From a virus (lineage: Duplodnaviria; Heunggongvirae; Uroviricota; Caudoviricetes), in IMG/VR virus record IMGVR_UViG_2718218136_000006: 25,778 bases of DNA, one strand, 5' to 3'. Shown in pieces: positions 2,642 to 24,969 of this stretch. Position 1 is the stretch's first letter. Each line of letters starts with the position of its first letter. The notes beneath the pieces are model-generated. The model ran no database searches, had not been told where the DNA came from, and saw only the letters and a list, made by a program, of their open reading frames with translations. The position numbers were made by a program, and so were the translations under genes.

Positions 2642-3171
2642 TGCTCTATCCCCCAACAGGCTAATGCGCTCTCCTGATCACGACGAATAACCTGACCGTA
2701 ACAGTTATTTGAACGAAGGCGGCAATCGCGCCCCCTGTCCTTAATCCACCAGCGAATCGCCTCGCAGGCACCTTTACGATCACCTGCATTCAGCCGCTTA
2801 TAAAATGTCGACGGAAAACACTTAGCGGGGCCAATGTTATAGGGACAAAATGACGCGATACCCGCTTTTTGTGGTTCGGTCAGTGTTACTTTAATATTGC
2901 GATCCACCCATGCCAGCGCCTTATCACGCTCAATGGCATTAACCTGATCGCATTTTTCCTTCGTCAGTGTCATGCCCGGAATAACAGGTTTACCATCTAC
3001 TATCGTGGCACCGCGACAGATGGTCCATATGCCGGAACCATCGCGGTATGCCGTAGTGTGGTTACCCTCTTTTTCATCCAGAAACTGGTCAAGTATCTCA
3101 GGAGCAGATGCGCCTGCTCCAATCAGCGCCAGAACGGCCGCTGACAGGCCGTATTTGATTTTTGCGTTCAT
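2638..3171 (-). CDS. SAR endolysin (phage lysozyme, signal-anchor-release type), 177 aa
   Basis: ATG 3169-3171; N-terminal Gly/Ala-rich weakly hydrophobic segment ([17 protein letters not shown]) followed by E-x8-D-x5-T lysozyme catalytic spacing ([16 protein letters not shown]). Confidence 0.85.
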
Positions 3172-3276
3172 GGATATTTATCAGGATTTATCGGTTTCTG
3201 AACCCTGGATATGTTTATCTGCCCCGGCCTGTTGAATCAGGCGGGGAAAAGGTAAATACAATCAAGAGGATTATTT

Positions 3277-4856: not shown

Positions 4857-4931
<75 letters not shown>

Positions 4932-4934
4932 ATA

Positions 4935-5010
<76 letters not shown>

Positions 5011-8087: not shown

Positions 8088-9416
8088 CTGAGAGATCCCC
8101 TCATAATTTCCCCAAAGCGTAACCATGTGTGAATAAATTTTGAGCTAGTAGGGTTGCAGCCACGAGTAAGTCTTCCCTTGTTATTGTGTAGCCAGAATGC
8201 CGCAAAACTTCCATGCCTAAGCGAACTGTTGAGAGTACGTTTCGATTTCTGACTGTGTTAGCCTGGAAGTGCTTGTCCCAACCTTGTTTCTGAGCATGAA
8301 CGCCCGCAAGCCAACATGTTAGTTGAAGCATCAGGGCGATTAGCAGCATGATATCAAAACGCTCTGAGCTGCTCGTTCGGCTATGGCGTAGGCCTAGTCC
8401 GTAGGCAGGACTTTTCAAGTCTCGGAAGGTTTCTTCAATCTGCATTCGCTTCGAATAGATATTAACAAGTTGTTTGGGTGTTCGAATTTCAACAGGTAAG
8501 TTAGTTGCTAGAACCCATGGCTCCTTTGCCGACGCTGAGTAGATTTTAGGTGACGGGTGGTGACAATGAGTCCGTGTCGAGCGCTGATTTTTTCGGCCTT
8601 TAGAGCGAGATTTATACAATAGAATTTGGCATGAGATTGGATTGCTTTTAGTCAGCCTCTTATAGCCTAAAGTCTTTGAGTGACTAGATGACATATCATG
8701 TAAGTTGCTGATAGGTTTCCAGTTTTCCGCTCCTAGGTCTGCATATTGTACTTTTCCTCTTACTCGACTTAACCAGTACCAACCCAGCTTCTCAACGGAT
8801 TTATACCATGGCACTTTAAAGCCAGCATCACTGACAATGAGCGGTGTGGTGTTACTCGGTAGAATGCTCGCAAGGTCGGCTAGAAATTGGTCATGAGCTT
8901 TCTTTGAACATTGCTCTGAAAGCGGGAACGCTTTCTCATAAAGAGTAACAGAACGACCGTGTAGTGCGACTGAAGCTCGCAATACCATAAGTCGTTTTTG
9001 CTCACGAATATCAGACCAGTCAACAAGTACAATGGGCATCGTATTGCCCGAACAGATAAAGCTAGCATGCCAACGGTATACAGCGAGTCGCTCTTTGTGG
9101 AGGTGACGATTACCTAACAATCGGTCGATTCGTTTGATGTTATGTTTTGTTCTCGCTTTGGTTGGCAGGTTACGGCCAAGTTCGGTAAGAGTGAGAGTTT
9201 TACAGTCAAGTAATGCGTGGCAAGCCAACGTTAAGCTGTTGAGTCGTTTTAAGTGTAATTCGGGGCAGAATTGGTAAAGAGAGTCGTGTAAAATATCGAG
9301 TTCGCACATCTTGTTGTCTGATTATTGATTTTTCGCGAAACCATTTGATCATATGACAAGATGTGTATCTACCTTAACTTAATGATTTTGATAAAAATCA
9401 TTAGGGGATTCATCAG
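8088..9416 (-). mobile_element. IS10 copy 1 (1329 bp), flanked by 9-bp direct duplication CGCTTTGCA (8079-8087 and 9417-9425)
   Basis: Ends CTGAGAGATCCCCTCATAATTTCCCC (inside end) and ...TCATTAGGGGATTCATCAG (outside end) recalled as IS10 termini; exact 9-bp flanking repeat read from sequence. Confidence 0.95.
8101..9309 (-). CDS. IS10 transposase, 402 aa
   Basis: ORF track; protein MCELDILHDSLYQFCPELHLKRLNSL... recalled as the IS10/Tn10 transposase. Confidence 0.95.
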   Translation of the reverse strand: MCELDILHDSLYQFCPELHLKRLNSLTLACHALLDCKTLTLTELGRNLPTKARTKHNIKRIDRLLGNRHLHKERLAVYRWHASFICSGNTMPIVLVDWSDIREQKRLMVLRASVALHGRSVTLYEKAFPLSEQCSKKAHDQFLADLASILPSNTTPLIVSDAGFKVPWYKSVEKLGWYWLSRVRGKVQYADLGAENWKPISNLHDMSSSHSKTLGYKRLTKSNPISCQILLYKSRSKGRKNQRSTRTHCHHPSPKIYSASAKEPWVLATNLPVEIRTPKQLVNIYSKRMQIEETFRDLKSPAYGLGLRHSRTSSSERFDIMLLIALMLQLTCWLAGVHAQKQGWDKHFQANTVRNRNVLSTVRLGMEVLRHSGYTITREDLLVAATLLAQNLFTHGYALGKL

Positions 9417-11284
9417 CGCTTTGCATCAGACAGAAGGTCATCCCAAGTTAATGTATACATTTCTTGTTCTCTCAATGTTTTCAGTTTCATATTTAACGTT
9501 GCATTTCTCTTTAAAAAATCATCAGCAACTAGATAACCGGAAACTCGCTTGAATGGACTTCCTGTTGCAGAGTCTAAATAAACTCTGAAAGTATTAACAT
9601 ACTCCTCAAAGCGATTGATGTGATCTTTATCTATTTTCAGCCCTGGCCTCATGAATTCAAGTACAAGCAAATGTTCACCACTTGAAAGAACTAAGTCAAC
9701 CCTTCCTTTAAAGCTTGGATCGTGTTCAATGTCTGATTCTTTTGCTGCTTCTCTAGCGATATGCTGGACATTTTTCTCAATAGCATAAGTCTCCCATTTT
9801 GGAGCTATCAGCCAAGGATTCTTCGCAATATAGTCTCGAACAGCATTTTCTAATTCTTTAGTGCGTATTCTAGTCTCAAGACCACTTATAGTATCAAGCT
9901 TAGCTTTAACTGATTCTGCTGTGTGTAAAGCCTGAATTGTATTTGCTTCGATCAATATCTCAAGCAATTTCGTTTCATCCATATCAGGAACGGAAGCAAC
10001 GCTTCTTATAAGCTCTTTTAGACGCCCTCCCTCCCATGCAGTGAGGATAGAGTTGCCTATATGCCTAAATTGCTCTGCACCGATTTGTTGGATTGATGCA
10101 ATTCGTTTCAAAGCCATTATAACCGTTTTTTTCTCTACACCTAGTTTATCTAGCCTACTTCTGAAATCATCAATTTTACTTTCAATCAGTTTGGTTTTTT
10201 CATCTGCCCGCCGATCTTTCCAGATTTTTAATAATTCGCGAACACGTTTCTGTCCCCACTCTTCTAATTTGGCAAGGTGGTGACTACTCCAATTCAATCT
10301 TTGTCGTTCAGTAGAAATCACATCATCATTAAACTCATCCAAATAATCAGCAATTACAGCCCCTGTCATATATTCAGGACCATTTTGACTTGGCAACCCT
10401 CCAGTCAAGTTAAACATAAACGGCCTTTGTGCTAATTTTTTGTGAGCGTAAATCGAGATACCTTGCAACTCATCATCCTTGATTGTTTCTTTTAAGAAAA
10501 ACACTCTCCATTTTATCTCATAACCATCAACGATTTCTTTTCCATACCCCAAACTGTCAATCTCCGTAAGAGAATCAGGTTTTTCATCTACAGTATAATC
10601 TTTTGGAAAACTATATTCTGCAGTGGCAAGAAAATTTTCGACTGGCATGGGGGTATTATTAATACGAACTAAAAATTCATCGCCGCCAGAATTGATCGCA
10701 AACCTTCTCGCCATAGATGTAGCAAAAGAAGACTCATTTAACAATCTATTTATTTTCAATGACTTAAGTGTTACTGTTGTTCCATGATTTTCTTTTTCTA
10801 ATTCTGAAGGGCCTGTGCGGAAGGTCACATCAATAGCCATGCTTTCAGTTTTAACGTAGTCATCTGACGATCTAATCTTATTTATATCCAAAGTAAAACT
10901 AGTTTTTTCACCTGTTTCTTGGCTAGTAGTACAAATTTCTATAATCTCAGCAATACCAAAACCAGCAAACTTTCCGATACCTTTTCTTCCCATTAAGTCT
11001 CGATTGAATAATTTCGACTTCGCTACAGGATTATCTTTCCTTTTATCAAAACCAACCGTAAGAAATTTCTTTTGACATTCTTCAAATGTCATTCCAATAC
11101 CATTGTCTTTTATAACAATAGTTCTATTTTCATGCGTGGGTAGTGTAATATTAACTTCGGTTGCATCCGCGTCCCAAGCATTAGAAACCATTTCAGCTAT
11201 TGCTGCTGTTGGACTTTGATACATTTGAATACCTAAATGATCAATTATCCTACCATGAAAATTTAGAAATAGTTTATTATCCAT
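9413..11284 (-). CDS. MORC/MutL-like GHKL ATPase (HATPase_c-type N-terminus) with large C-terminal region; truncated to 623 aa by IS10, original about 660 aa
   Basis: Bergerat-fold motifs read directly: EMVSNAWDA (N box), IKDNGIGM (G1), GRKGIGKFAGFG (G2). ATG 11282-11284 overlaps MTase stop by 8 nt. Stop codon 9413-9415 lies inside the IS10 end. Confidence 0.75.
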   Translation of the reverse strand: MDNKLFLNFHGRIIDHLGIQMYQSPTAAIAEMVSNAWDADATEVNITLPTHENRTIVIKDNGIGMTFEECQKKFLTVGFDKRKDNPVAKSKLFNRDLMGRKGIGKFAGFGIAEIIEICTTSQETGEKTSFTLDINKIRSSDDYVKTESMAIDVTFRTGPSELEKENHGTTVTLKSLKINRLLNESSFATSMARRFAINSGGDEFLVRINNTPMPVENFLATAEYSFPKDYTVDEKPDSLTEIDSLGYGKEIVDGYEIKWRVFFLKETIKDDELQGISIYAHKKLAQRPFMFNLTGGLPSQNGPEYMTGAVIADYLDEFNDDVISTERQRLNWSSHHLAKLEEWGQKRVRELLKIWKDRRADEKTKLIESKIDDFRSRLDKLGVEKKTVIMALKRIASIQQIGAEQFRHIGNSILTAWEGGRLKELIRSVASVPDMDETKLLEILIEANTIQALHTAESVKAKLDTISGLETRIRTKELENAVRDYIAKNPWLIAPKWETYAIEKNVQHIAREAAKESDIEHDPSFKGRVDLVLSSGEHLLVLEFMRPGLKIDKDHINRFEEYVNTFRVYLDSATGSPFKRVSGYLVADDFLKRNATLNMKLKTLREQEMYTLTWDDLLSDAKR

Positions 11285-12325
11285 AATCCGCCTCGTTTTT
11301 AGTTATATGTTCTTTGATAAGTTCAGCATGATGCTTAATGAATTCAGGGGGCAATGCATTCCCTATCATCAAAGCAGCCTTGTCTTTACCAAATTGAATA
11401 GGAAAATAGTAATCACTCGGAAAAGTTTGTAATAATGCAGCCTCTCGAAGAGTTATTGCTCTATCTTGTTCAGGATGTAAAAAACGACCTTTTGAAGGAT
11501 TAGTACATCCACTCGTAATAGTTGGAGCTACATCATCCCACCTCATACGACCGTAAACATCGCGAAAACCATTTGGATATCGTTTATGACATGGCAGCCA
11601 ATACTCGTAAGGAAGTTGAGAGCGGCTTCCCCCATCCTTAGGAATAAGACTTATAATTTTTTTAACCTTCTCAGTTCTTCTTTCTAATATATTGTGCAGC
11701 GGATCATTGCTATTTTCAGGTCGAGCCAAATGGCCTATTGCATCGCGCACAGTTATTAAATTACTATTTTTTTGAGCACGAGTAAGCTCTCCGTATCGCG
11801 AAGCAAGTAGTACCATGCGCTTACGTCTTTGTGGCACACCAAATTTACTAGCATCTTCAATTAAAACTGAATTATCATCGATATGATAACCCAATTTCTT
11901 AAGCTCCGAAGTAAACATGTTTATTCGTTCGTCAAATGCCAAAGCTGGTACATTTTCAACCATTACAACTTTTGGAAAAAAGACTTTAACAAAATCTAAA
12001 AAATTAAAAATAAGTTCATTTCTCTCATCAAAGACAGCTACTGTTTTATTTTTTGTTCTTAACGAAGAAAATCCTTGACATGGTGGACAACCTGCCAACA
12101 AATCCAGTTCACCTTGCTGAATTTTTAATTGTTTCATTAATTCATCTGGTGATATATTTTTATATCCCCATTTATTAAGTTAACATCCGGATGGTTGATT
12201 CTATAGGTTTCAGATACAATAGCTTCTTTTTCGATTGCTGATATGACATCAAAGCCAGCCATTTTTAGACCAACTGTCAAACCACCAGCGCCACAAAAAA
12301 GATCAATTGCTTTCATTTTATGCAT
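11277..12325 (-). pseudogene. Dcm-family DNA (cytosine-5) methyltransferase, split by a -1 frameshift in an A5 run (T5 on plus strand at 12157-12161)
   Basis: 62-aa ORF carries motif I (DLFCGAGG) and GDIK; 286-aa ORF carries motif IV (PCQGFS), ENV, and C-terminal GNALPP. Adding one A restores a continuous GDIKNISPDEL...ELDLLAGCPPCQ reading. Confidence 0.8.
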
Positions 12326-13892: not shown

Positions 13893-14639
13893 TTACTTCG
13901 CAGTTCCTGGCTGGACGACATTTGGACGCCAGCTCTCCCAGTTAAAATTCACCCATCGCCCGCCGTTCATGGTCATGCGATCCATAATCCGCTCGCCGAG
14001 CAATGTTTTCATGGCCTCATAGTTCAGGTTTGTCAGCATCCCCACGCTGCGCATCGACGCTGTCCGGCGATCAACAATCTGGTGCAGTACCACCTGCTCG
14101 TTTTTTGTCTCGCGCTGAATGCCAATTTCATCAAGAACCAGCAGATCCACTTCGCACAGTTCCCGCAAAAATTTTTCGCCTGATTGCCCGTCGTCATAGC
14201 TGGCGTGTAGAGCACTCATGACATCAGCCACAGTAACCACAATCACTGTCTGGCCATCTTTCAGCAGACGATTCCCGATAGCCGCCGCCAGATGGTTTTT
14301 TCCGGTACCAGGTTTTCCGCTGAACGCAAAATTTGTACACCCGGTCATCAGTTCATCAGCGATAGATTTCGCCTGGCTCAACGCGTATCGCTGACCGTCG
14401 TTCTGCACCTGGTAATTCACAAACGAGCATTTACGGTGCAACGGCTGGATGCCTGAGCGATTCAGAATTTTTTCCACCCGCAACTGGCGATTCAGGCGGT
14501 TGATCTCCTCGCTACGTTTCTGGCCTTCAGCAAGTTGCCACTCGCGCCACTCCGCTACCGTTCTGAATGGGGCGGTTACATGTGGCGGGGTCAGTCGGCG
14601 GATGCGTTCCAGAACGCCGCCTGTCGCAATATTTTTCAT
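13893..14639 (-). CDS. ydaV: DnaC-like helicase loader (lambda P analogue), 248 aa
   Basis: Walker [10 protein letters not shown] and Walker B LLVLDE read directly; position downstream of the O-like gene. Confidence 0.85.
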
Positions 14640-14645
14640 GGTTCG

Positions 14646-15440
14646 TTACCCCCTGAAGCCTGGCGGGATCGCACTGTCCGGCAACGAGACGGTGTTAACC
14701 TGTCTGAGCAACGTCTCAGGCCTAACACCTTTCGGCGCGAACAAGCCCTGGTATTCATTGGCGATGCTATGTCGAATCACCTGCTCAGGGGTAAAACCCT
14801 GCTGGCGGAATTTTTCCAGTTCCCGTATCGCCCCGTTAGCGCCCTGCTCCGTTCGAATCGGTTTTCGCAATGCCTGCCTGAACCGGACCCACTCATGCCA
14901 GAGTGTTTCCGGCAACCAATCGGGCAACTCAATAGCCTCCGGCTCGAATTTTTTAGATGCTCGTTTTTGGCGAGGGGGATTTAGGGGGAGATCAGTATTT
15001 ATATCTTCCTCTTCCTCTTCCTCTTCCTCTGGTAACGCTTTTTGATCCGTTTGTGTAACGCTGGCAGCGTTACCTTTTCGTTTCAGTTCGCGTATTTTTG
15101 TAACCCTCTCGTTTGTAATCGCCCGTTTTTTAGAGCTTTTTCCGTTATGACGTTCAAAGTTAGGTAGAGAAAGCCCACCGTTATTTTCGACCAGCCATCC
15201 AACCTGAATTAACGCATCAGCAAAACCAGCCATAAAAGTGATGCGATCTATTGCACTTTTTGTAACGCCGCGAGCGTTACACTCTGCGTTACCGTCTATC
15301 ATTTGTTGATCCGCCCATGCCCAGAAGCGAATGACTTTCCCTAATGCGGCATCTGGATCAATATTCAGAATCTCAGCAAGCCTGAATATTTCCGGCTTAT
15401 CCGGCGTAATAACCTCGAGCTTTATCCAGTTTGAAGCCAT
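14646..15440 (-). CDS. ydaU: replication initiation-like protein YdaU (start uncertain: ATG 15438-15440 with AAGGTG, or TTG at 15518)
   Basis: ORF track 14646..15518; sequence and position recalled as Rac YdaU; contains poly-Glu tract. Confidence 0.7.
   Translation of the reverse strand: MASNWIKLEVITPDKPEIFRLAEILNIDPDAALGKVIRFWAWADQQMIDGNAECNARGVTKSAIDRITFMAGFADALIQVGWLVENNGGLSLPNFERHNGKSSKKRAITNERVTKIRELKRKGNAASVTQTDQKALPEEEEEEEEDINTDLPLNPPRQKRASKKFEPEAIELPDWLPETLWHEWVRFRQALRKPIRTEQGANGAIRELEKFRQQGFTPEQVIRHSIANEYQGLFAPKGVRPETLLRQVNTVSLPDSAIPPGFRG
15005..15030. repeat. hexanucleotide repeat (CTTCCT)x4, encoding an 8-residue poly-Glu tract in YdaU
   Basis: Directly read, in frame within ydaU. 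Confidence 0.9.
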
Positions 15441-15518
15441 ATTGTTTTCACCTTGTAACGCTGTAAGCGTTACATTTAACTGATACCGAACAAAACAGTC
15501 CGGCACGATTAATTTCAA

Positions 15519-15941
15519 TCAATGCACTACGACAGAATCGCTAGGAGAACCGCCGCCGCTGAAATGTGCTTTACGGTAAACGGCCTGGACTGCATCATCA
15601 TGCGCATCAATTGCCGTACTCAGTGCATCCTGTGCCGCCAGTAATGCACGGCGTTCCAGGGTATCGAAGATGCAGAGTCGGTGACGCAGCTCGCGAGGAA
15701 GAATTGCCAGAACCGCAGGGATCAGTTTCTGAATTTTTTCCCTTTGCGCATTCGTTTCACCTTTCAACCAACGATGATAGATATTCTGCTGATTGTTCCA
15801 GTCCTTGCCTGGTACCAGGGGCAATTCGCCGCCCCCCTGGCGCAGATATTCTTCAGTAATTGCGTTAGCGACCCACGCCTGCCCTTTTTCGGCTGCCAGG
15901 GCTAACAACACTGATTCGATGTGCTCATGCTTGATTTTCAT
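15519..15941 (-). CDS. ydaT: YdaT, 140 aa (reported toxic partner of YdaS under RacR control)
   Basis: ORF track; start ATG 15939-15941 overlaps ydaS stop (ATGA); sequence recalled as Rac YdaT. Confidence 0.8.
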   Translation of the reverse strand: MKIKHEHIESVLLALAAEKGQAWVANAITEEYLRQGGGELPLVPGKDWNNQQNIYHRWLKGETNAQREKIQKLIPAVLAILPRELRHRLCIFDTLERRALLAAQDALSTAIDAHDDAVQAVYRKAHFSGGGSPSDSVVVH

Positions 15942-16192
15942 GAATCAACTCCCATCAGCTTTTTCGTAGTAGTTTTATTTCTGCCAATAGTTAAAATTGC
16001 ATCGGCAGAAAATAATCCGTTTGATGCATGAGCGATTTTTTCAGCGTAATTTGTTTCGCCGGTATATTCTGTGCGAGGCAATTTTCCGTTATCCATCCAT
16101 TTGTAGATTGCTCTTTGGCTGACACCACAAACGTCGGCCACAACAGAAACGCGAACAGTTTTGATTACATCTTCAAGTGTTTTCTGGTTCAT
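15938..16192 (-). CDS. ydaS: YdaS, Cro-like HTH protein (84 aa from ATG 16190-16192; ORF track extends to 16264)
   Basis: GAGGGTG Shine-Dalgarno before ATG at 16192; HTH segment VADVCGVSQRAIYKW; divergent from racR. Confidence 0.75.
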   Translation of the reverse strand: MNQKTLEDVIKTVRVSVVADVCGVSQRAIYKWMDNGKLPRTEYTGETNYAEKIAHASNGLFSADAILTIGRNKTTTKKLMGVDS

Positions 16193-16216
16193 ATCACCCT
16201 CACAATGTGAACTTTG

Positions 16217-16247
16217 AGTACATGCTATAACAGAACTGACAGTACAT
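16217..16247. promoter_or_regulatory. candidate operator pair in the racR-ydaS divergent control region (two AGTACAT heptamers, 16217-16223 and 16241-16247)
   Basis: Directly read repeats in the 80-bp intergenic region between divergent repressor and cro-like genes. Confidence 0.4.
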
Positions 16248-16271
16248 TCAAGAGCGAATATCATTGAACTT

Positions 16272-16610
16272 ATGGTTCATGAAGATAAAGCGCGTAAAGA
16301 GTTCGCCAGTAGGCTTGCGCTAGCCTGTGAAAACGCTGGTTATGAACAACATGGAAGGCAGGCAGAAATTGCCCGTCGAATGAAATTAACACCAAAAGCG
16401 GTTAGCAAATGGTTTAATGGTGAAACAATTCCTCGCCGAGAGAAATTAAGGGAATTAGCAACACTCATTGGAACAACACCAACCTATCTTTTGGGAGAGG
16501 ATACAGAAGAAAGTGGACAGATACGTTTCTATCAGGAGTTAAATCCAAGACAAAAATCATCATTGACCTTCTGGACGAGCTCCCTGACAGTGAGACAGAT
16601 GAACTTTTAA
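16272..16610 (+). CDS. racR: RacR prophage repressor (XRE-type HTH); 112 aa as read, possibly frameshifted near 16552-16556 with a displaced C-terminal frame to 16689
   Basis: ORF track; HTH GRQAEIARRMKLTPKAVSKWFNG; see findings for the alternative frame. Confidence 0.75.
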   Translation: MVHEDKARKEFASRLALACENAGYEQHGRQAEIARRMKLTPKAVSKWFNGETIPRREKLRELATLIGTTPTYLLGEDTEESGQIRFYQELNPRQKSSLTFWTSSLTVRQMNF

Positions 16611-16765
16611 AAACTCTTGAGGAGAAAAAACAGAAGTACAATGCAATTTACGAAGAGTTAGCACGAAAGAAAAAACAAAAAGCCTCTTAAACCAGCATAA
16701 ATCCGGTAGCGTCCCCCTCCGGGTTTGTGCTTCACTTTATCCCGTCTCATTTTTTTATACATAAA

Positions 16766-16810
16766 ATGTACTTAAAGTACTTTACAATGATGAACACAAA
16801 GTACATTATA
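16766..16810 (+). promoter_or_regulatory. candidate early-left promoter with overlapping operators upstream of ydaG
   Basis: TTTACA (16781-16786), 17-18 bp spacer, CATTAT/ATTATA (16804-16810); palindrome GTACTT-A-AAGTAC (16768-16780) and further AGTACAT copies at 16766-16772 (reverse) and 16800-16806. Confidence 0.35.
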
Positions 16811-16983
16811 TACCTACCAACCCACCCCGCCCCACAGAACGCCGGGCAATACTTCGAGTTACCAGGCAGTGGTCAGGGGTTAAGTAGCCAGCCCGAGGCG
16901 TATGAACATGACGGCAGTTGTTGATTGATACAAAGCGCAGTAGATAAAACGTTCCGCCACCCGGCGTTAAGGGGAGAGATAAG

Positions 16984-17118
16984 ATGGTGCATTACGAAGT
17001 AGTTCAGTATTTGATGGATTGTTGCGATATCACTTACAGCCAAGCTGTACAGGCTCTACGCAGCAACGACTGGGATCTCTGGCAGGCAGAAGTCGCTATA
17101 CGTAGCAACAAGATGTGA
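16984..17118 (+). CDS. ydaG: YdaG, 44 aa (below ORF-track cutoff)
   Basis: ATG 16984 behind GGGGAGAG; translation MVHYEVVQYLMDCCDITYSQAVQALRSNDWDLWQAEVAIRSNKM read by hand. Confidence 0.65.
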   Translation: MVHYEVVQYLMDCCDITYSQAVQALRSNDWDLWQAEVAIRSNKM

Positions 17119-17128
17119 GATTCGCAAA

Positions 17129-17284
17129 ATGCAAAAAATCGACCTCGGCAACAACGAATCCCTGGTGTGCGGCGTGTTCCCCAACCAGGATGGAACGTTC
17201 ACTGCCATGACGTATACCAAAAGCAAAACATTTAAAACCGAAACTGGTGCGCGCCGATGGTTGGAGAAGCACACAGTAAGCTAA
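17129..17284 (+). CDS. ydaF: YdaF, 51 aa (below ORF-track cutoff)
   Basis: ATG 17129; translation MQKIDLGNNESLVCGVFPNQDGTFTAMTYTKSKTFKTETGARRWLEKHTVS read by hand; 3' end overlaps sieB 3' end by 4 bp. Confidence 0.65.
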   Translation: MQKIDLGNNESLVCGVFPNQDGTFTAMTYTKSKTFKTETGARRWLEKHTVS

Positions 17285-17769
17285 CGATTAAAACGTCTAC
17301 TCCTGCTGTTCCAGAATAACTTCATAAAATGGGAGTATTTTTCGGTGACGAGATAATAAGAACAGTTTGCGCTATCACTCTGATGTTGAATGATGCCCTT
17401 CCGTTCTAATTTTTTCATAACCGGGTTACGGCAAGGAGAAGTGATAATAAGATTTCCTGTTTTAAGGAAATCTTTAAATACAGCGATTTCTTTCTCAGAT
17501 AAACGAAGCAATACTCGTTGCTCTGGTAGTAATGAATAATGCTTTTGAATATGTGCTCGCAATCTTGAGAAGGAAATGGCGACCACGAAAGAAAAGGCAA
17601 AAACGATAATCTGAAAGAGCCAAGGTATTTCAGTATAAGCATTGAATGCGACAGTAAACTCTTTCGGTATCAGCCAGAGAGTGAGACCAAAAATGATAAT
17701 CGTATACATAAGTCTTTCGAGTGGCTCGTTAGCAAAAAATTTCAACAATGGAGTAAATACATCCAACAT
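17281..17769 (-). CDS. sieB: SieB superinfection exclusion protein, 162 aa
   Basis: ORF track 17281..17892 trimmed to ATG 17767-17769 (MLDVFTPLL...); two hydrophobic segments; recalled as Rac SieB. Confidence 0.8.
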   Translation of the reverse strand: MLDVFTPLLKFFANEPLERLMYTIIIFGLTLWLIPKEFTVAFNAYTEIPWLFQIIVFAFSFVVAISFSRLRAHIQKHYSLLPEQRVLLRLSEKEIAVFKDFLKTGNLIITSPCRNPVMKKLERKGIIQHQSDSANCSYYLVTEKYSHFMKLFWNSRSRRFNR

Positions 17770-22512: not shown

Positions 22513-22707
22513 ATGAGATATGACAATGTTAAACCATGTCCATTTTGTGGTTGTCCATCAGTAACGGTGAAAGTCATTTCAGGATATTACCGAGCGAAGT
22601 GTAACGGATGCGAATCCCGAACCGGTTATGGTGGAAGTGAAAGAGAAGCACTCGAAAGATGGAATAAACGAACCACTGGAAATAATAACGGAGGTGTTCA
22701 TGTATAA
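22513..22707 (+). CDS. ralR: RalR (Lar) restriction-alleviation protein, 64 aa
   Basis: ORF track 22474..22707 trimmed to ATG 22513 (MRYDNVKPCPFCGC...); Cys-rich zinc-ribbon-like pattern. Confidence 0.8.
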   Translation: MRYDNVKPCPFCGCPSVTVKVISGYYRAKCNGCESRTGYGGSEREALERWNKRTTGNNNGGVHV

Positions 22708-22888
22708 AATTACCGCTACTATTGAAAAGGAAGGTGGCACTCCTACTAACTGGACAAGATATTCAAAATCTAAACTAACGAAATCAGAATGCGAAAAAAT
22801 GCTCTCAGGTAAAAAAGAAGCAGGCGTTTCCAGAGAGCAGAAAGTAAAACTGATAAATTTTAATTGCGAGAAACTTCAGTCCTCGTGA
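22700..22888 (+). CDS. ydaC: YdaC, 62 aa
   Basis: ATG 22700 behind GGAGG, overlapping ralR end by 8 nt; ORF track 22628..22888. Confidence 0.65.
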   Translation: MYKITATIEKEGGTPTNWTRYSKSKLTKSECEKMLSGKKEAGVSREQKVKLINFNCEKLQSS

Positions 22889-23640: not shown

Positions 23641-24969
23641 CTGAGAGATCCCCTCATAATTTCCCCAAAGCGTAACCATGTGTGAATAAATTTTGAGCTA
23701 GTAGGGTTGCAGCCACGAGTAAGTCTTCCCTTGTTATTGTGTAGCCAGAATGCCGCAAAACTTCCATGCCTAAGCGAACTGTTGAGAGTACGTTTCGATT
23801 TCTGACTGTGTTAGCCTGGAAGTGCTTGTCCCAACCTTGTTTCTGAGCATGAACGCCCGCAAGCCAACATGTTAGTTGAAGCATCAGGGCGATTAGCAGC
23901 ATGATATCAAAACGCTCTGAGCTGCTCGTTCGGCTATGGCGTAGGCCTAGTCCGTAGGCAGGACTTTTCAAGTCTCGGAAGGTTTCTTCAATCTGCATTC
24001 GCTTCGAATAGATATTAACAAGTTGTTTGGGTGTTCGAATTTCAACAGGTAAGTTAGTTGCTAGAACCCATGGCTCCTTTGCCGACGCTGAGTAGATTTT
24101 AGGTGACGGGTGGTGACAATGAGTCCGTGTCGAGCGCTGATTTTTTCGGCCTTTAGAGCGAGATTTATACAATAGAATTTGGCATGAGATTGGATTGCTT
24201 TTAGTCAGCCTCTTATAGCCTAAAGTCTTTGAGTGACTAGATGACATATCATGTAAGTTGCTGATAGGTTTCCAGTTTTCCGCTCCTAGGTCTGCATATT
24301 GTACTTTTCCTCTTACTCGACTTAACCAGTACCAACCCAGCTTCTCAACGGATTTATACCATGGCACTTTAAAGCCAGCATCACTGACAATGAGCGGTGT
24401 GGTGTTACTCGGTAGAATGCTCGCAAGGTCGGCTAGAAATTGGTCATGAGCTTTCTTTGAACATTGCTCTGAAAGCGGGAACGCTTTCTCATAAAGAGTA
24501 ACAGAACGACCGTGTAGTGCGACTGAAGCTCGCAATACCATAAGTCGTTTTTGCTCACGAATATCAGACCAGTCAACAAGTACAATGGGCATCGTATTGC
24601 CCGAACAGATAAAGCTAGCATGCCAACGGTATACAGCGAGTCGCTCTTTGTGGAGGTGACGATTACCTAACAATCGGTCGATTCGTTTGATGTTATGTTT
24701 TGTTCTCGCTTTGGTTGGCAGGTTACGGCCAAGTTCGGTAAGAGTGAGAGTTTTACAGTCAAGTAATGCGTGGCAAGCCAACGTTAAGCTGTTGAGTCGT
24801 TTTAAGTGTAATTCGGGGCAGAATTGGTAAAGAGAGTCGTGTAAAATATCGAGTTCGCACATCTTGTTGTCTGATTATTGATTTTTCGCGAAACCATTTG
24901 ATCATATGACAAGATGTGTATCTACCTTAACTTAATGATTTTGATAAAAATCATTAGGGGATTCATCAG
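23641..24969 (-). mobile_element. IS10 copy 2 (1329 bp), flanked by 9-bp direct duplication CGCTTTACC (23632-23640 and 24970-24978)
   Basis: Same termini as copy 1; 9-bp flanking repeat read from sequence; same orientation as copy 1. Confidence 0.95.
23654..24862 (-). CDS. IS10 transposase, 402 aa
   Basis: ORF track; protein identical to the copy-1 transposase. Confidence 0.95.
   Translation of the reverse strand: MCELDILHDSLYQFCPELHLKRLNSLTLACHALLDCKTLTLTELGRNLPTKARTKHNIKRIDRLLGNRHLHKERLAVYRWHASFICSGNTMPIVLVDWSDIREQKRLMVLRASVALHGRSVTLYEKAFPLSEQCSKKAHDQFLADLASILPSNTTPLIVSDAGFKVPWYKSVEKLGWYWLSRVRGKVQYADLGAENWKPISNLHDMSSSHSKTLGYKRLTKSNPISCQILLYKSRSKGRKNQRSTRTHCHHPSPKIYSASAKEPWVLATNLPVEIRTPKQLVNIYSKRMQIEETFRDLKSPAYGLGLRHSRTSSSERFDIMLLIALMLQLTCWLAGVHAQKQGWDKHFQANTVRNRNVLSTVRLGMEVLRHSGYTITREDLLVAATLLAQNLFTHGYALGKL

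Follow-up and report, generated by a model that had tools for sequence, protein, structure and literature searches.

Predicted HK022-type operators at both early promoters of a Rac-like prophage

Genes at this locus of the window (the whole stretch of DNA analysed, 25,778 nt) include ydaT, encoding a CII-like activator (15519-15941, minus strand; Pfam YdaT_toxin, phrog_163, 92.5% DNA identity to K-12 ydaT by blastn), an 84-aa Cro-like gene at the ydaS position (15938-16192, minus strand; phrog_35, homology to HK022 Cro, same coordinates in the PGAP annotation of strain EC12), a cI-like repressor gene at the racR position (16272-16690, plus strand; assigned by its HTH_3 domain and by alignment with two intact copies), and ydaG (16984-17118) and ydaF (17129-17284), both on the plus strand in a PL-like operon that begins with ydaG, in DNA identical to that annotated in EC12 and with a DUF1391 match. 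A YdaT-box (TTGATTTTCATGAATCAA; 15931-15948, unstranded), which matches the YdaT motif TTGATT-N6-AATCAA (PMC9986795, PMC11879457) with zero mismatches, lies where the start of ydaT meets the stop of the cro-like gene and delimits the immunity cassette on its left side. Homology to K-12 Rac extends through ydaT to 15947 and is found again by blastn from 16815 onward, with ydaG and ydaF common to K-12 Rac at 98% identity; only 15948-16814, comprising the cro-like gene, OR, the repressor gene and OL/PL, is replaced. The operators have been exchanged together with the repressor and cro genes, as in lambdoid phages. An Rfam search of the whole window returned nothing in 15900-17300 and, elsewhere, only RalA, two RNA-OUT and two tRNAs. 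RNA-OUT is a hallmark of IS10.

The repressor and cro-like genes are divergent, as in lambdoid immunity regions, and their products are homologous to HK022 CI and Cro. The intact repressor has 139 aa (WP_000233319.1), and its gene segment is present in 1027 of 5426 complete E. coli genomes (about one in five). The window copy has lost 1 nt from an A6 run (16552-16556), and the resulting frameshift gives a 112-aa product (about 93 residues of native sequence followed by 19 out-of-frame ones) that lacks the C-terminal 46 aa, with the whole HTH domain (the ~93 residues) still encoded; the deletion is private to the window, as none of the 1027 complete E. coli genomes with this gene segment carries it. 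Repressor residues 4-102 are 46% identical to HK022 CI, and the recognition helices are near-identical (TPKAVSKWFNGE in the window repressor, TPKAISKWFNGE in HK022 CI). No Peptidase_S24 or LexA-like C-terminal domain was found in the repressor with Pfam, and the GDSM motif of its 235-236-aa relatives is absent from the 139-aa protein. The repressor is predicted to work like the HK022 repressor at the DNA, yet it falls short of full membership in that protein family. Over 73 aa the Cro-like protein (WP_001072342.1) shares 62% identity with HK022 Cro (E 1e-34), and it gives a weak HTH_17 match, below the Pfam cut-off. In sequence searches of the PDB, the repressor gave no more than a weak match to P22 C2 (E 0.006), and the Cro-like protein gave none. 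The names racR and ydaS given to these genes in the original prediction are apt as to position, but the genes are not orthologues of their K-12 namesakes: the repressor aligns with K-12 RacR (b1356) over only 33 HTH residues at 36% identity, and the similarity of the Cro-like protein to K-12 YdaS is likewise limited to the HTH. Labels transferred by position can thus mislead.

Three promoters are predicted around these genes. The PR-like promoter of the cro-like/ydaT operon (16224-16251, minus strand) was placed by position from the annotated HK022 pR (TTGACT-16-CATAAT) and comprises a -35 TTGAAT (16251-16246), a 16-nt spacer and a poor -10 TATAGC (16229-16224) preceded by TGT, an extended -10. 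This placement is by homology only; the consensus promoter scan made no call for PR on the minus strand, because the -10 lacks the final T. The PRM-like promoter of the repressor gene (16236-16264, plus strand; CTGACA-17-TATCAT) was called by the scan with 10 of 12 matches, and the TAT of its -10 is invariant in six genomes. With its -10 ending 7 nt ahead of the ATG, this promoter is predicted to give a leaderless or nearly leaderless repressor mRNA; the HK022 'PM -10' is marked at the equivalent place in the supplement of PMC8053113. The candidate -35/-10 pair that had been pointed out upstream of ydaG was also called by the scan as the PL-like promoter of ydaG-ydaF and the genes beyond (16781-16809, plus strand; TTTACA-17-CATTAT), and it aligns with the annotated HK022 pL (TTTACA/CATCAT). 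A stable hairpin lies immediately 3' of the repressor stop codon (16694-16731, plus strand; fold -19.4 kcal/mol, z -4.7, with none of 200 shuffles equally stable); it is terminator-like, but its U tract is poor and it was not called by the terminator scan. For a put- or nut-like RNA structure 3' of PL, the fold of 16815-16985 was no stabler than shuffles (z -0.07).

Each copy of the heptamer AGTACAT noted in the original prediction is present: two between the divergent genes (16217-16223 and 16241-16247, plus strand), and a reverse (16766-16772, minus strand) and a forward copy (16800-16806, plus strand) upstream of ydaG, together with the palindrome GTACTTAAAGTAC at 16768-16780. These four, all within the 594-bp span 16217-16810, are the copies inside the two control regions among five in the window, the fifth lying at 11502 within a 286-aa ORF. 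The window-wide count that had been proposed as a check cuts both ways. The total of five against 2.3-2.5 expected is not significant by itself (P ~0.07-0.10), and clustering and longer motifs were examined instead; the clustering is significant, with four copies per 600 bp reached in 0.05% of 2000 dinucleotide-preserving shuffles (P ~0.0005). Equally strong clustering is seen for 31 of the 7186 heptamers of the window, and most of the best 25 of these 31 are A/T-rich. The extended pattern GWAC-N4-AGTACAT, defined post hoc with the sites already known, has four matches against 0.01 expected, all in the two control regions.

The heptamer had been described as the recurring unit; its copies are real, but the true unit is a 15-bp palindrome, TGWAC-N5-GTWCA, which is the HK022 operator pattern and was defined independently of the window. 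As read from the sequence, AGTACAT is the right half-site of this predicted operator plus flanking bases, with GTACA as the half-site, preceded by the final base of the spacer and followed by a single T from the flank. The 15-bp pattern has three perfect matches in the window, where 0.09 are expected, and the two control regions hold all three; at up to one mismatch there are seven, five of which fall in these regions. Those five are the predicted operators, namely OR1, OR2 and OR3 between the divergent genes and OL2 and OL1 on the leftward promoter, all unstranded features; three have no mismatch and two have one.

OR1 (TGAACTTTGAGTACA; 16208-16222, perfect) contributes to the heptamer at 16217-16223, lies between the PR -10 and the ribosome-binding site of the cro-like gene, covers the predicted PR start, and aligns column by column with HK022 OR1 (430-444 of the HK022 sequence compared). 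OR2 (AGAACTGACAGTACA; 16232-16246, one mismatch), overlapped by the heptamer at 16241-16247, lies within the PR spacer and includes the PRM -35-like CTGACA; it starts 24 bp after the OR1 start, as does OR2 of HK022 (GGAACTGATAGTACA), and its columns GAACTGA.AGT.C are invariant in six genomes. OR3 (TGAACTTATGGTTCA; 16265-16279, perfect) is centred on the repressor ATG at 16272 and is identical in sequence to OR3 and OR1 of HK022; it escaped the original prediction because it contains no AGTACAT. On the leftward side, OL2 (TGTACTTAAAGTACT; 16767-16781, one mismatch) overlaps the reverse heptamer and the palindrome, adjoins the PL -35 and aligns with HK022 OL2 (TGTACTATTGGTACT; 1262-1276 of the HK022 sequence compared), and OL1 (TGAACACAAAGTACA; 16791-16805, perfect) overlaps the PL spacer and -10, carries the heptamer at 16800-16806, which is invariant in six genomes, and starts 24 bp after the OL2 start, as does OL1 of HK022 (TGAACTTTAAGTACA). 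The start offsets are accordingly 0/+24/+57 in OR and 0/+24 in OL. No equivalent of OL3 or OFR was found at up to two mismatches between 16280 and 16766. The only site at up to two mismatches near the cro-like gene is 16029-16043, within its coding sequence and lacking a partner site.

Comparison with other phages bears on whether these sites descend from known operators. The stretch from cro through OR to the N-terminal part of cI (16022-16432) is 70-71% identical to HK022 and HK75, and the OL/PL stretch (16752-16810) is 79-80% identical to both. In GenBank records X16093.1 and HM173637.1, 15-bp operators are annotated exactly where the alignment puts the sites of the window; they are offset by 24 and 33 bp as in the window and overlap the promoters in the same way. 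The operator offsets of the window recur unchanged in HK022, HK75, Tritos and phages of Klebsiella, Citrobacter, Salmonella and Providencia. A phylogenetic footprint, which took in the window, Tritos, HK022 and the Klebsiella, Citrobacter, Providencia and Salmonella phages, found half-sites and promoter hexamers invariant, and N5 spacers and inter-site DNA variable, in six diverged genomes. IMG/VR was scanned with an OR1+OR2 pattern, which returned 120 loci; the OR1 and OR2 columns of this survey have no independent weight because they were fixed by the search pattern. An OR3-type site at +57 from OR1, though outside the search pattern, was present in all 120 viral contigs, and a TPKAxSKW helix was encoded immediately downstream in 112 of them; four of the eight contigs that lacked the helix extended no more than 434 nt downstream of OR1. 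Among the AGTACAT copies in 1.14 Mb of related viral contigs, 72% fall within clustered operator sites, and the density outside such sites is 0.88 per 10 kb, compared with four copies in the 594-bp span of the window.

These data make it extremely improbable that the repeats are chance or duplicated promoter DNA, that is, A/T-rich promoter-like sequence common to PR and PL that no protein reads. Such a reading draws on the non-significant total of the heptamer and on its final T at OL1, the flanking base, which is part of the -10 hexamer CATTAT; against it stand the clustering probability, the invariance of half-sites next to changed bases, the share of heptamers lying in operator clusters in related contigs, and the placement of OR1 downstream of the PR -10 and of OR3 on the repressor start codon, so that neither is a promoter hexamer.

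The identity of the reader can be narrowed similarly. K-12 RacR was footprinted in its divergent region on (T/A)TAGGC-n3-GCCTA(T/A) (PMC9638921), and a search of the window for this motif gave a single two-mismatch match, inside coding sequence, against 6.4 expected. Although the repressor gene shares the position and orientation of racR, between ydaS/ydaT and ydaG, with flanks 92-98% identical to K-12 Rac, this result and the short HTH alignment leave next to no likelihood that the protein is K-12 RacR and AGTACAT its recognition sequence. A footprint of K-12 RacR on the window would give a false negative, the relevant protein being the prophage's own 139-aa repressor. Reading of the sites by another regulator, either the CII-like YdaT or a replication initiator, is also very unlikely. 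K-12 YdaT does bind within the racR-ydaS intergenic region (PMC11879457), but its motif differs from the operators and has its perfect copy elsewhere, at 15931-15948, and the palindromes of the initiator region are different ones (TGTAACGC-N5-GCGTTACA). Moreover, K-12 shares ydaT but lacks the AGTACAT sites, which therefore move as part of the repressor/cro cassette rather than with ydaT.

That lambda-like operators lie at both the rightward and leftward early promoters, as had been claimed, is upheld by homology to the annotated operators of HK022 and HK75 and by conservation across diverged phages, and the two-promoter layout is further supported by K-12 Rac, where a different repeat of its own (TTAGGC-N3-GCCTAA) occupies the two corresponding positions. 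We assign a probability of about 0.88 to the reading that the five sites are the operators of an HK022-type immunity module in a Rac-like prophage, judged from sequence comparison. In the proposed switch, dimers of the cI-like repressor (HTH_3, helix TPKAVSKWFNGE) would bind the five sites, and the Cro-like protein probably binds the same ones. OR1 and OR2 overlap PR, the putative driver of the cro-like gene, ydaT and the replication genes, and OL2 and OL1 overlap PL, the putative driver of ydaG, ydaF, kilR and recE; occupancy of OR1/OR2 and OL2/OL1 would turn both early operons off. The 24-bp start spacing within each pair, as in HK022, suggests cooperative pairwise binding, and an OL-OR distance of ~560 bp makes a repressor-mediated loop plausible; for HK022 CI, cooperative binding to adjacent OR and OL operators with looping between them is described in PMC8053113, which cites Carlson and Little 1993 on the point. 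OR3, on the predicted leaderless start of the repressor, may serve negative autoregulation or repression by Cro.

We infer in this scheme binding, cooperativity, looping, the effect of OR2 occupancy on PRM and the order in which the proteins fill the sites. Because the repressor has no LexA-like C-terminal domain, which provides dimerisation and cooperativity in HK022 CI, cooperativity and looping would rest on an uncharacterised tail of 44-46 aa, and since the frameshift removes this tail in the window, occupancy of the sites in this strain may be weak or absent. As the PRM -35-like hexamer lies inside OR2, unlike in lambda, it cannot be taken for granted that repressor at OR2 activates PRM.

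The frameshift also raises the question of whether the sites, while genuine operators by descent, still belong to a working switch in this strain or are a relic of a decaying Rac-like element. Loss of the C-terminal 46 aa through a deletion seen in none of the 1027 complete E. coli genomes with the gene segment would fit decay, as would a recE pseudogene in the closest genome and the two RNA-OUT copies in the window. The deletion, however, affects a homopolymer and could be a sequencing artefact, the entire HTH domain is still encoded, and the five operators and three promoters are identical to those of intact copies and thus give no sign of decay. Loss of RacR is lethal in K-12 through ydaS/ydaT (PMC5700373, PMC11879457), a reason to think that a viable strain must retain some repression. 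We regard decay of the switch as unlikely, and keep to the HK022-type immunity module.

If the 139-aa repressor reads the operators of HK022 CI, HK022-type temperate phages of E. coli would meet a cross-immunity, insensitive to SOS, conferred by resident Rac-like cryptic prophages; this proposal is tentative, and we hold it at somewhat short of even odds. If true, cross-immunity possibly extends to HK022-type phages that infect Klebsiella, Citrobacter and Salmonella, the short tail would need to provide cooperativity as well as OL-OR looping in a manner unlike the classical CI C-terminal domain, and the private frameshift of the window would be a natural tail-less mutant. The frameshifted repressor, if real, also bears on de-repression of ydaT, kilR and other toxic early genes. 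Literature linking Rac-like prophages to HK022 immunity was searched for and none was found, and the Jobling 2018 letter contains nothing about operators. The analysis provides an operator map and promoter layout for a common Rac-like immunity type, distinct from the K-12 RacR and CP-933P PaaR2 types, the ones investigated to date. It makes no conceptual addition to the lambda/HK022 paradigm: the layout follows that of HK022, and the result is correct but ordinary.

The closest known system is the immunity region of HK022 (also HK75 and O276), with which the window shares the 15-bp pattern, its offsets and its promoter overlaps, an identical OR3 centred on the repressor ATG, and nearly identical OR2 and OL1. 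The two differ in that HK022 CI is a 235-aa, two-domain LexA-like protein with GDSM, whereas the window type has 139 aa and a short unrelated C-terminal tail; in that no counterpart of HK022 OL3 or OFR was found in the window at up to two mismatches; in that the analogue of its CII is YdaT; and in that putL and nun lie 3' of its pL, where the window has the Rac genes ydaG and ydaF. K-12 Rac resembles the window in gene order and in its flanks outside 15948-16814, in divergent repressor and cro-like genes with several operators, one of them over the repressor start codon (PMC9638921), in having a second set of operators on the promoter that precedes ydaG, and in a short repressor that lacks a peptidase domain, but it is heteroimmune, its operator repeat being unlike TGWAC-N5-GTWCA. 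CP-933P of E. coli O157:H7 (PaaR2/YdaS/YdaT), in which PR, PRM and PL have been found experimentally to be regulated by the repressor PaaR2 and the Cro-like protein (PMC8630535), is likewise a cryptic prophage of Rac-like type in which OR and a PL-like promoter share operators, with a short cI-like repressor lacking a peptidase domain and a leaderless repressor mRNA; it differs in having a third motif, with a GTTTAGTAA-type operator consensus in four 18-bp repeats, and a toxin-antitoxin pair after the repressor gene, absent in the window. The overall logic predicted for the window is that of lambda, with one repressor for related sites at the two divergent early promoters, a third OR site that controls the promoter of the repressor itself, and a leaderless cI mRNA, whereas lambda operators are 17 bp long and of other sequence, with three OL sites; OR3 lies between the PRM -35 and -10 in lambda and is centred on the +1/ATG in the window, and OR2 merely touches the -35 in lambda and contains the -35-like hexamer in the window.

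The heptamer AGTACAT was found in both control regions, as originally predicted, with plus-strand copies at 16217 and 16241 between the divergent cro-like and cI-like genes and, upstream of ydaG, at 16800 together with a minus-strand copy at 16766. The palindrome predicted upstream of ydaG (GTACTTAAAGTAC) is present, as is the overlap of the heptamer with a candidate -35/-10 pair (TTTACA-17-CATTAT). A count across the window, proposed beforehand as a check, gave one copy elsewhere, at 11502 within a 286-aa ORF (11277-12137, minus strand). The total (5 vs 2.3-2.5 expected, P ~0.07-0.10) is not significant alone; four copies in 600 bp arose in 0.05% of 2000 dinucleotide-preserving shuffles. Among the matches listed from 1.14 Mb of operator-bearing IMG/VR contigs, 72% of AGTACAT copies lay inside clustered operator sites, with 0.88 per 10 kb outside them.

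The recurring unit is 15 bp long. Each heptamer is preceded at a fixed distance by GAAC or GTAC, and GWAC-N4-AGTACAT (W = A or T), drawn up after the sites had been seen, has four matches in the window, none of them outside the two control regions (0.01 expected). An independent definition, TGWAC-N5-GTWCA, the common pattern of annotated HK022-type operators, gave three perfect matches in the window vs 0.09 expected and seven with up to one mismatch, of which five fall within the control regions: candidate operators OR1 (16208-16222, TGAACTTTGAGTACA), OR2 (16232-16246, AGAACTGACAGTACA) and OR3 (16265-16279, TGAACTTATGGTTCA) in the divergent region, and OL2 (16767-16781, TGTACTTAAAGTACT) and OL1 (16791-16805, TGAACACAAAGTACA) upstream of ydaG. 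The 15-bp HK022-type reference operators, as annotated in GenBank X16093.1 and HM173637.1, are TGAACTTATGGTTCA (OR1), GGAACTGATAGTACA (OR2), TGAACTTATGGTTCA (OR3, overlapping the cI ATG), TGTACTATTGGTACT (OL2) and TGAACTTTAAGTACA (OL1), and the operator offsets in HK022 and the window are identical (OR 0/+24/+57, OL 0/+24). With five such sites at HK022 offsets, AGTACAT is made up of the final base of the spacer, the right half-site GTACA and a T that flanks the 15-bp unit. The predicted recurrence therefore stands, with the heptamer giving way to the 15-bp unit by HK022 operator homology; the two sites predicted in the divergent region are real matches, and OR3 had been overlooked because its right half is GTTCA. 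The heptamer at 11502 belongs to an operator-like 15-mer with one mismatch (11493-11507, TGAAGGATTAGTACA), which is probably fortuitous, since ~2.5 one-mismatch matches are expected by chance.

Similarity to HK022 extends beyond the operators. Positions 16022-16432 (cro-like N-terminus, intergenic region and repressor N-terminus) share 70-71% identity with HK022, HK75 and O276, and 16752-16810 shares 79-80% with the OL/pL region of the same phages. HK022 CI shares 46% identity with repressor residues 4-102, with recognition helix TPKAVSKWFNGE in the window-type repressor vs TPKAISKWFNGE in HK022, and HK022 Cro shares 62% with the cro-like protein. The element is an HK022-type immunity module with a short repressor variant in a Rac-like prophage, a well-known kind of system, and the predicted lambda-like operator arrangement is supported. 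In a footprint alignment of OR and OL (window, Tritos, HK022, and Klebsiella, Citrobacter, Providencia or Salmonella phages), half-sites and promoter hexamers were unchanged, and N5 spacers and inter-site DNA differed.

Scanning IMG/VR with an OR1+OR2 pattern returned at least 120 loci. Among the matches listed, all 120 carried the +57 site (up to one mismatch), a position outside the search pattern, and 112 encoded a TPKAxSKW helix just downstream; four of the other eight had 434 nt of DNA or less downstream of OR1. C-terminal types among the matches listed were S24-type (47; 226-236 aa), short (21; 139 aa) and other (22; 245-292 aa), and in 18 of the 21 listed short-class loci the OL pair lies 558-561 bp from OR1, as in the window. 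One operator triplet and helix is joined to at least three C-terminal kinds (L011-L130), which suggests that domains have often been shuffled behind a DNA-reading head that is itself conserved.

The leftward promoter-like element PL (TTTACA 16781-16786, 17 nt, CATTAT 16804-16809) aligns with annotated HK022 pL; OL2 adjoins its -35, and OL1 spans its spacer and -10. The rightward PR-like element (minus strand; TTGAAT, 16 nt, TATAGC, with TGT before the -10) was recognised by homology to HK022 pR only and was not picked up by a consensus promoter scan. The repressor gene's own PRM-like element (CTGACA 16236-16241, 17 nt, TATCAT 16259-16264) has a -10 with TAT invariant in six genomes, at the position equivalent to the 'PM -10' marked in HK022; it ends 7 nt from the repressor ATG, implying a leaderless mRNA, as in lambda and CP-933P. 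A stable hairpin directly after the repressor stop codon (16694-16731, -19.4 kcal/mol, z -4.7) may be a terminator insulating the repressor transcript from PL, with a poor U tract. Chance or promoter duplication, which might otherwise explain the recurring heptamer, is excluded: the clustering and the site conservation contradict it, and OR1 and OR3 lie outside promoter hexamers.

The best-supported reading of the immunity region is that of HK022 and lambda, from which we infer binding, cooperativity and looping. Repressor dimers would occupy OR1+OR2 and OL1+OL2, blocking PR and PL, and through OR3, on the leaderless start, the repressor gene could be autoregulated or shut off by Cro. Looping between OL and OR across ~560 bp is plausible, since HK022 CI forms such loops between the HK022 operators (PMC8053113). 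Unlike in the models, OR2 contains the PRM -35-like hexamer, and activation of the lambda type from this site should therefore not be assumed.

In the intact repressor (WP_000233319.1, 139 aa), a domain search found an HTH_3 domain and no Peptidase_S24 domain. Lacking the LexA-like domain of the models, this protein must oligomerise through its uncharacterised tail of 46 aa, and it is not expected to undergo SOS-driven self-cleavage. In the window, a 1-nt deletion in the A6 run at 16552-16556 shifts the frame, giving a 112-aa product and removing the C-terminal 46 aa. This deletion occurred in 0 of 1027 complete E. coli genomes carrying the gene segment; either the homopolymer was misread in sequencing or the mutation is specific to this strain. 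Were the frameshift real, the AGTACAT sites might now be unoccupied relics, which we consider unlikely; operators and promoters in the window are identical to those in intact copies.

The window is a Rac-like prophage of E. coli in the orientation opposite to K-12, with ydaV (13893-14639, -), a ydaU-like replication initiator (14646-15440, -), ydaT (15519-15941, -), the 84-aa cro-like gene (15938-16192, -), the cI-like repressor gene (16272-16690, +), ydaG (16984-17118, +), ydaF (17129-17284, +) and sieB (17281-17769, -). Many chromosomes of E. coli share a 1.4-kb stretch of the window at 99.9% identity; coverage of this stretch reaches at least 80% in 644 of the 5426 complete genomes. Three 21-bp palindromes, TGTAACGC-N5-GCGTTACA (15054-15074, 15261-15281 and 15454-15474; two with one arm mismatch), lie in the N-terminal half of the ydaU-like gene and immediately upstream of it, with additional half-sites close by (15031-15474). 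Together with the absence of similarity to K-12 Rac at 15008-15520, between similar flanks, they suggest that the DNA-binding domain of the initiator and the origin iterons were swapped as one module (cf. lambda O and ori). Two identical RNA-OUT (IS10) matches (9302-9371 and 24855-24924, both +, ~15.5 kb apart) bracket the immunity region, and a RalA antitoxin sRNA and two tRNA genes are also present (listed spans 22706-22884 and 4860-5010, both -).

Relative to K-12 Rac, the replaced block is 15948-16814 only, containing exactly the cro-like gene, OR, the repressor gene and OL/PL; ydaT to its left is 92.5% identical to K-12, and the sequence from 16815 rightward 98%. A perfect YdaT-box palindrome (15931-15948, TTGATTTTCATGAATCAA) across the ydaT start and cro-like stop codons marks the left joint of this heteroimmune cassette. 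That YdaT reads the AGTACAT sites is very improbable, as it has this box of its own and goes with the K-12-like flank, not with the cassette. The repressor and cro-like protein resemble K-12 RacR and YdaS within the helix-turn-helix only and are not their orthologues, contrary to the original gene assignment. K-12 RacR specificity of the sites is excluded by this limited likeness and by the RacR footprint, which falls on different, TTAGGC-type repeats of the K-12 divergent region (PMC9638921); in the window that RacR motif gave one 2-mismatch match vs 6.4 expected. The K-12 block has its own TTAGGC-N3-GCCTAA-type repeats (8 matches vs 2.6 expected), all in the divergent region, at the racR start (two 3-mismatch matches) or upstream of ydaG. 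Three of these RacR-type repeats upstream of ydaG (3130-3188 of the K-12 MG1655 Rac locus, L003) flank a near-consensus promoter, TTGACA-17-TATAGT, in what looks like the OL/PL equivalent; the word ydaG is absent from the main text of PMC9638921. CP-933P carries a third motif, at OR and a PL-like promoter, both regulated experimentally by PaaR2 and YdaS (PMC8630535).
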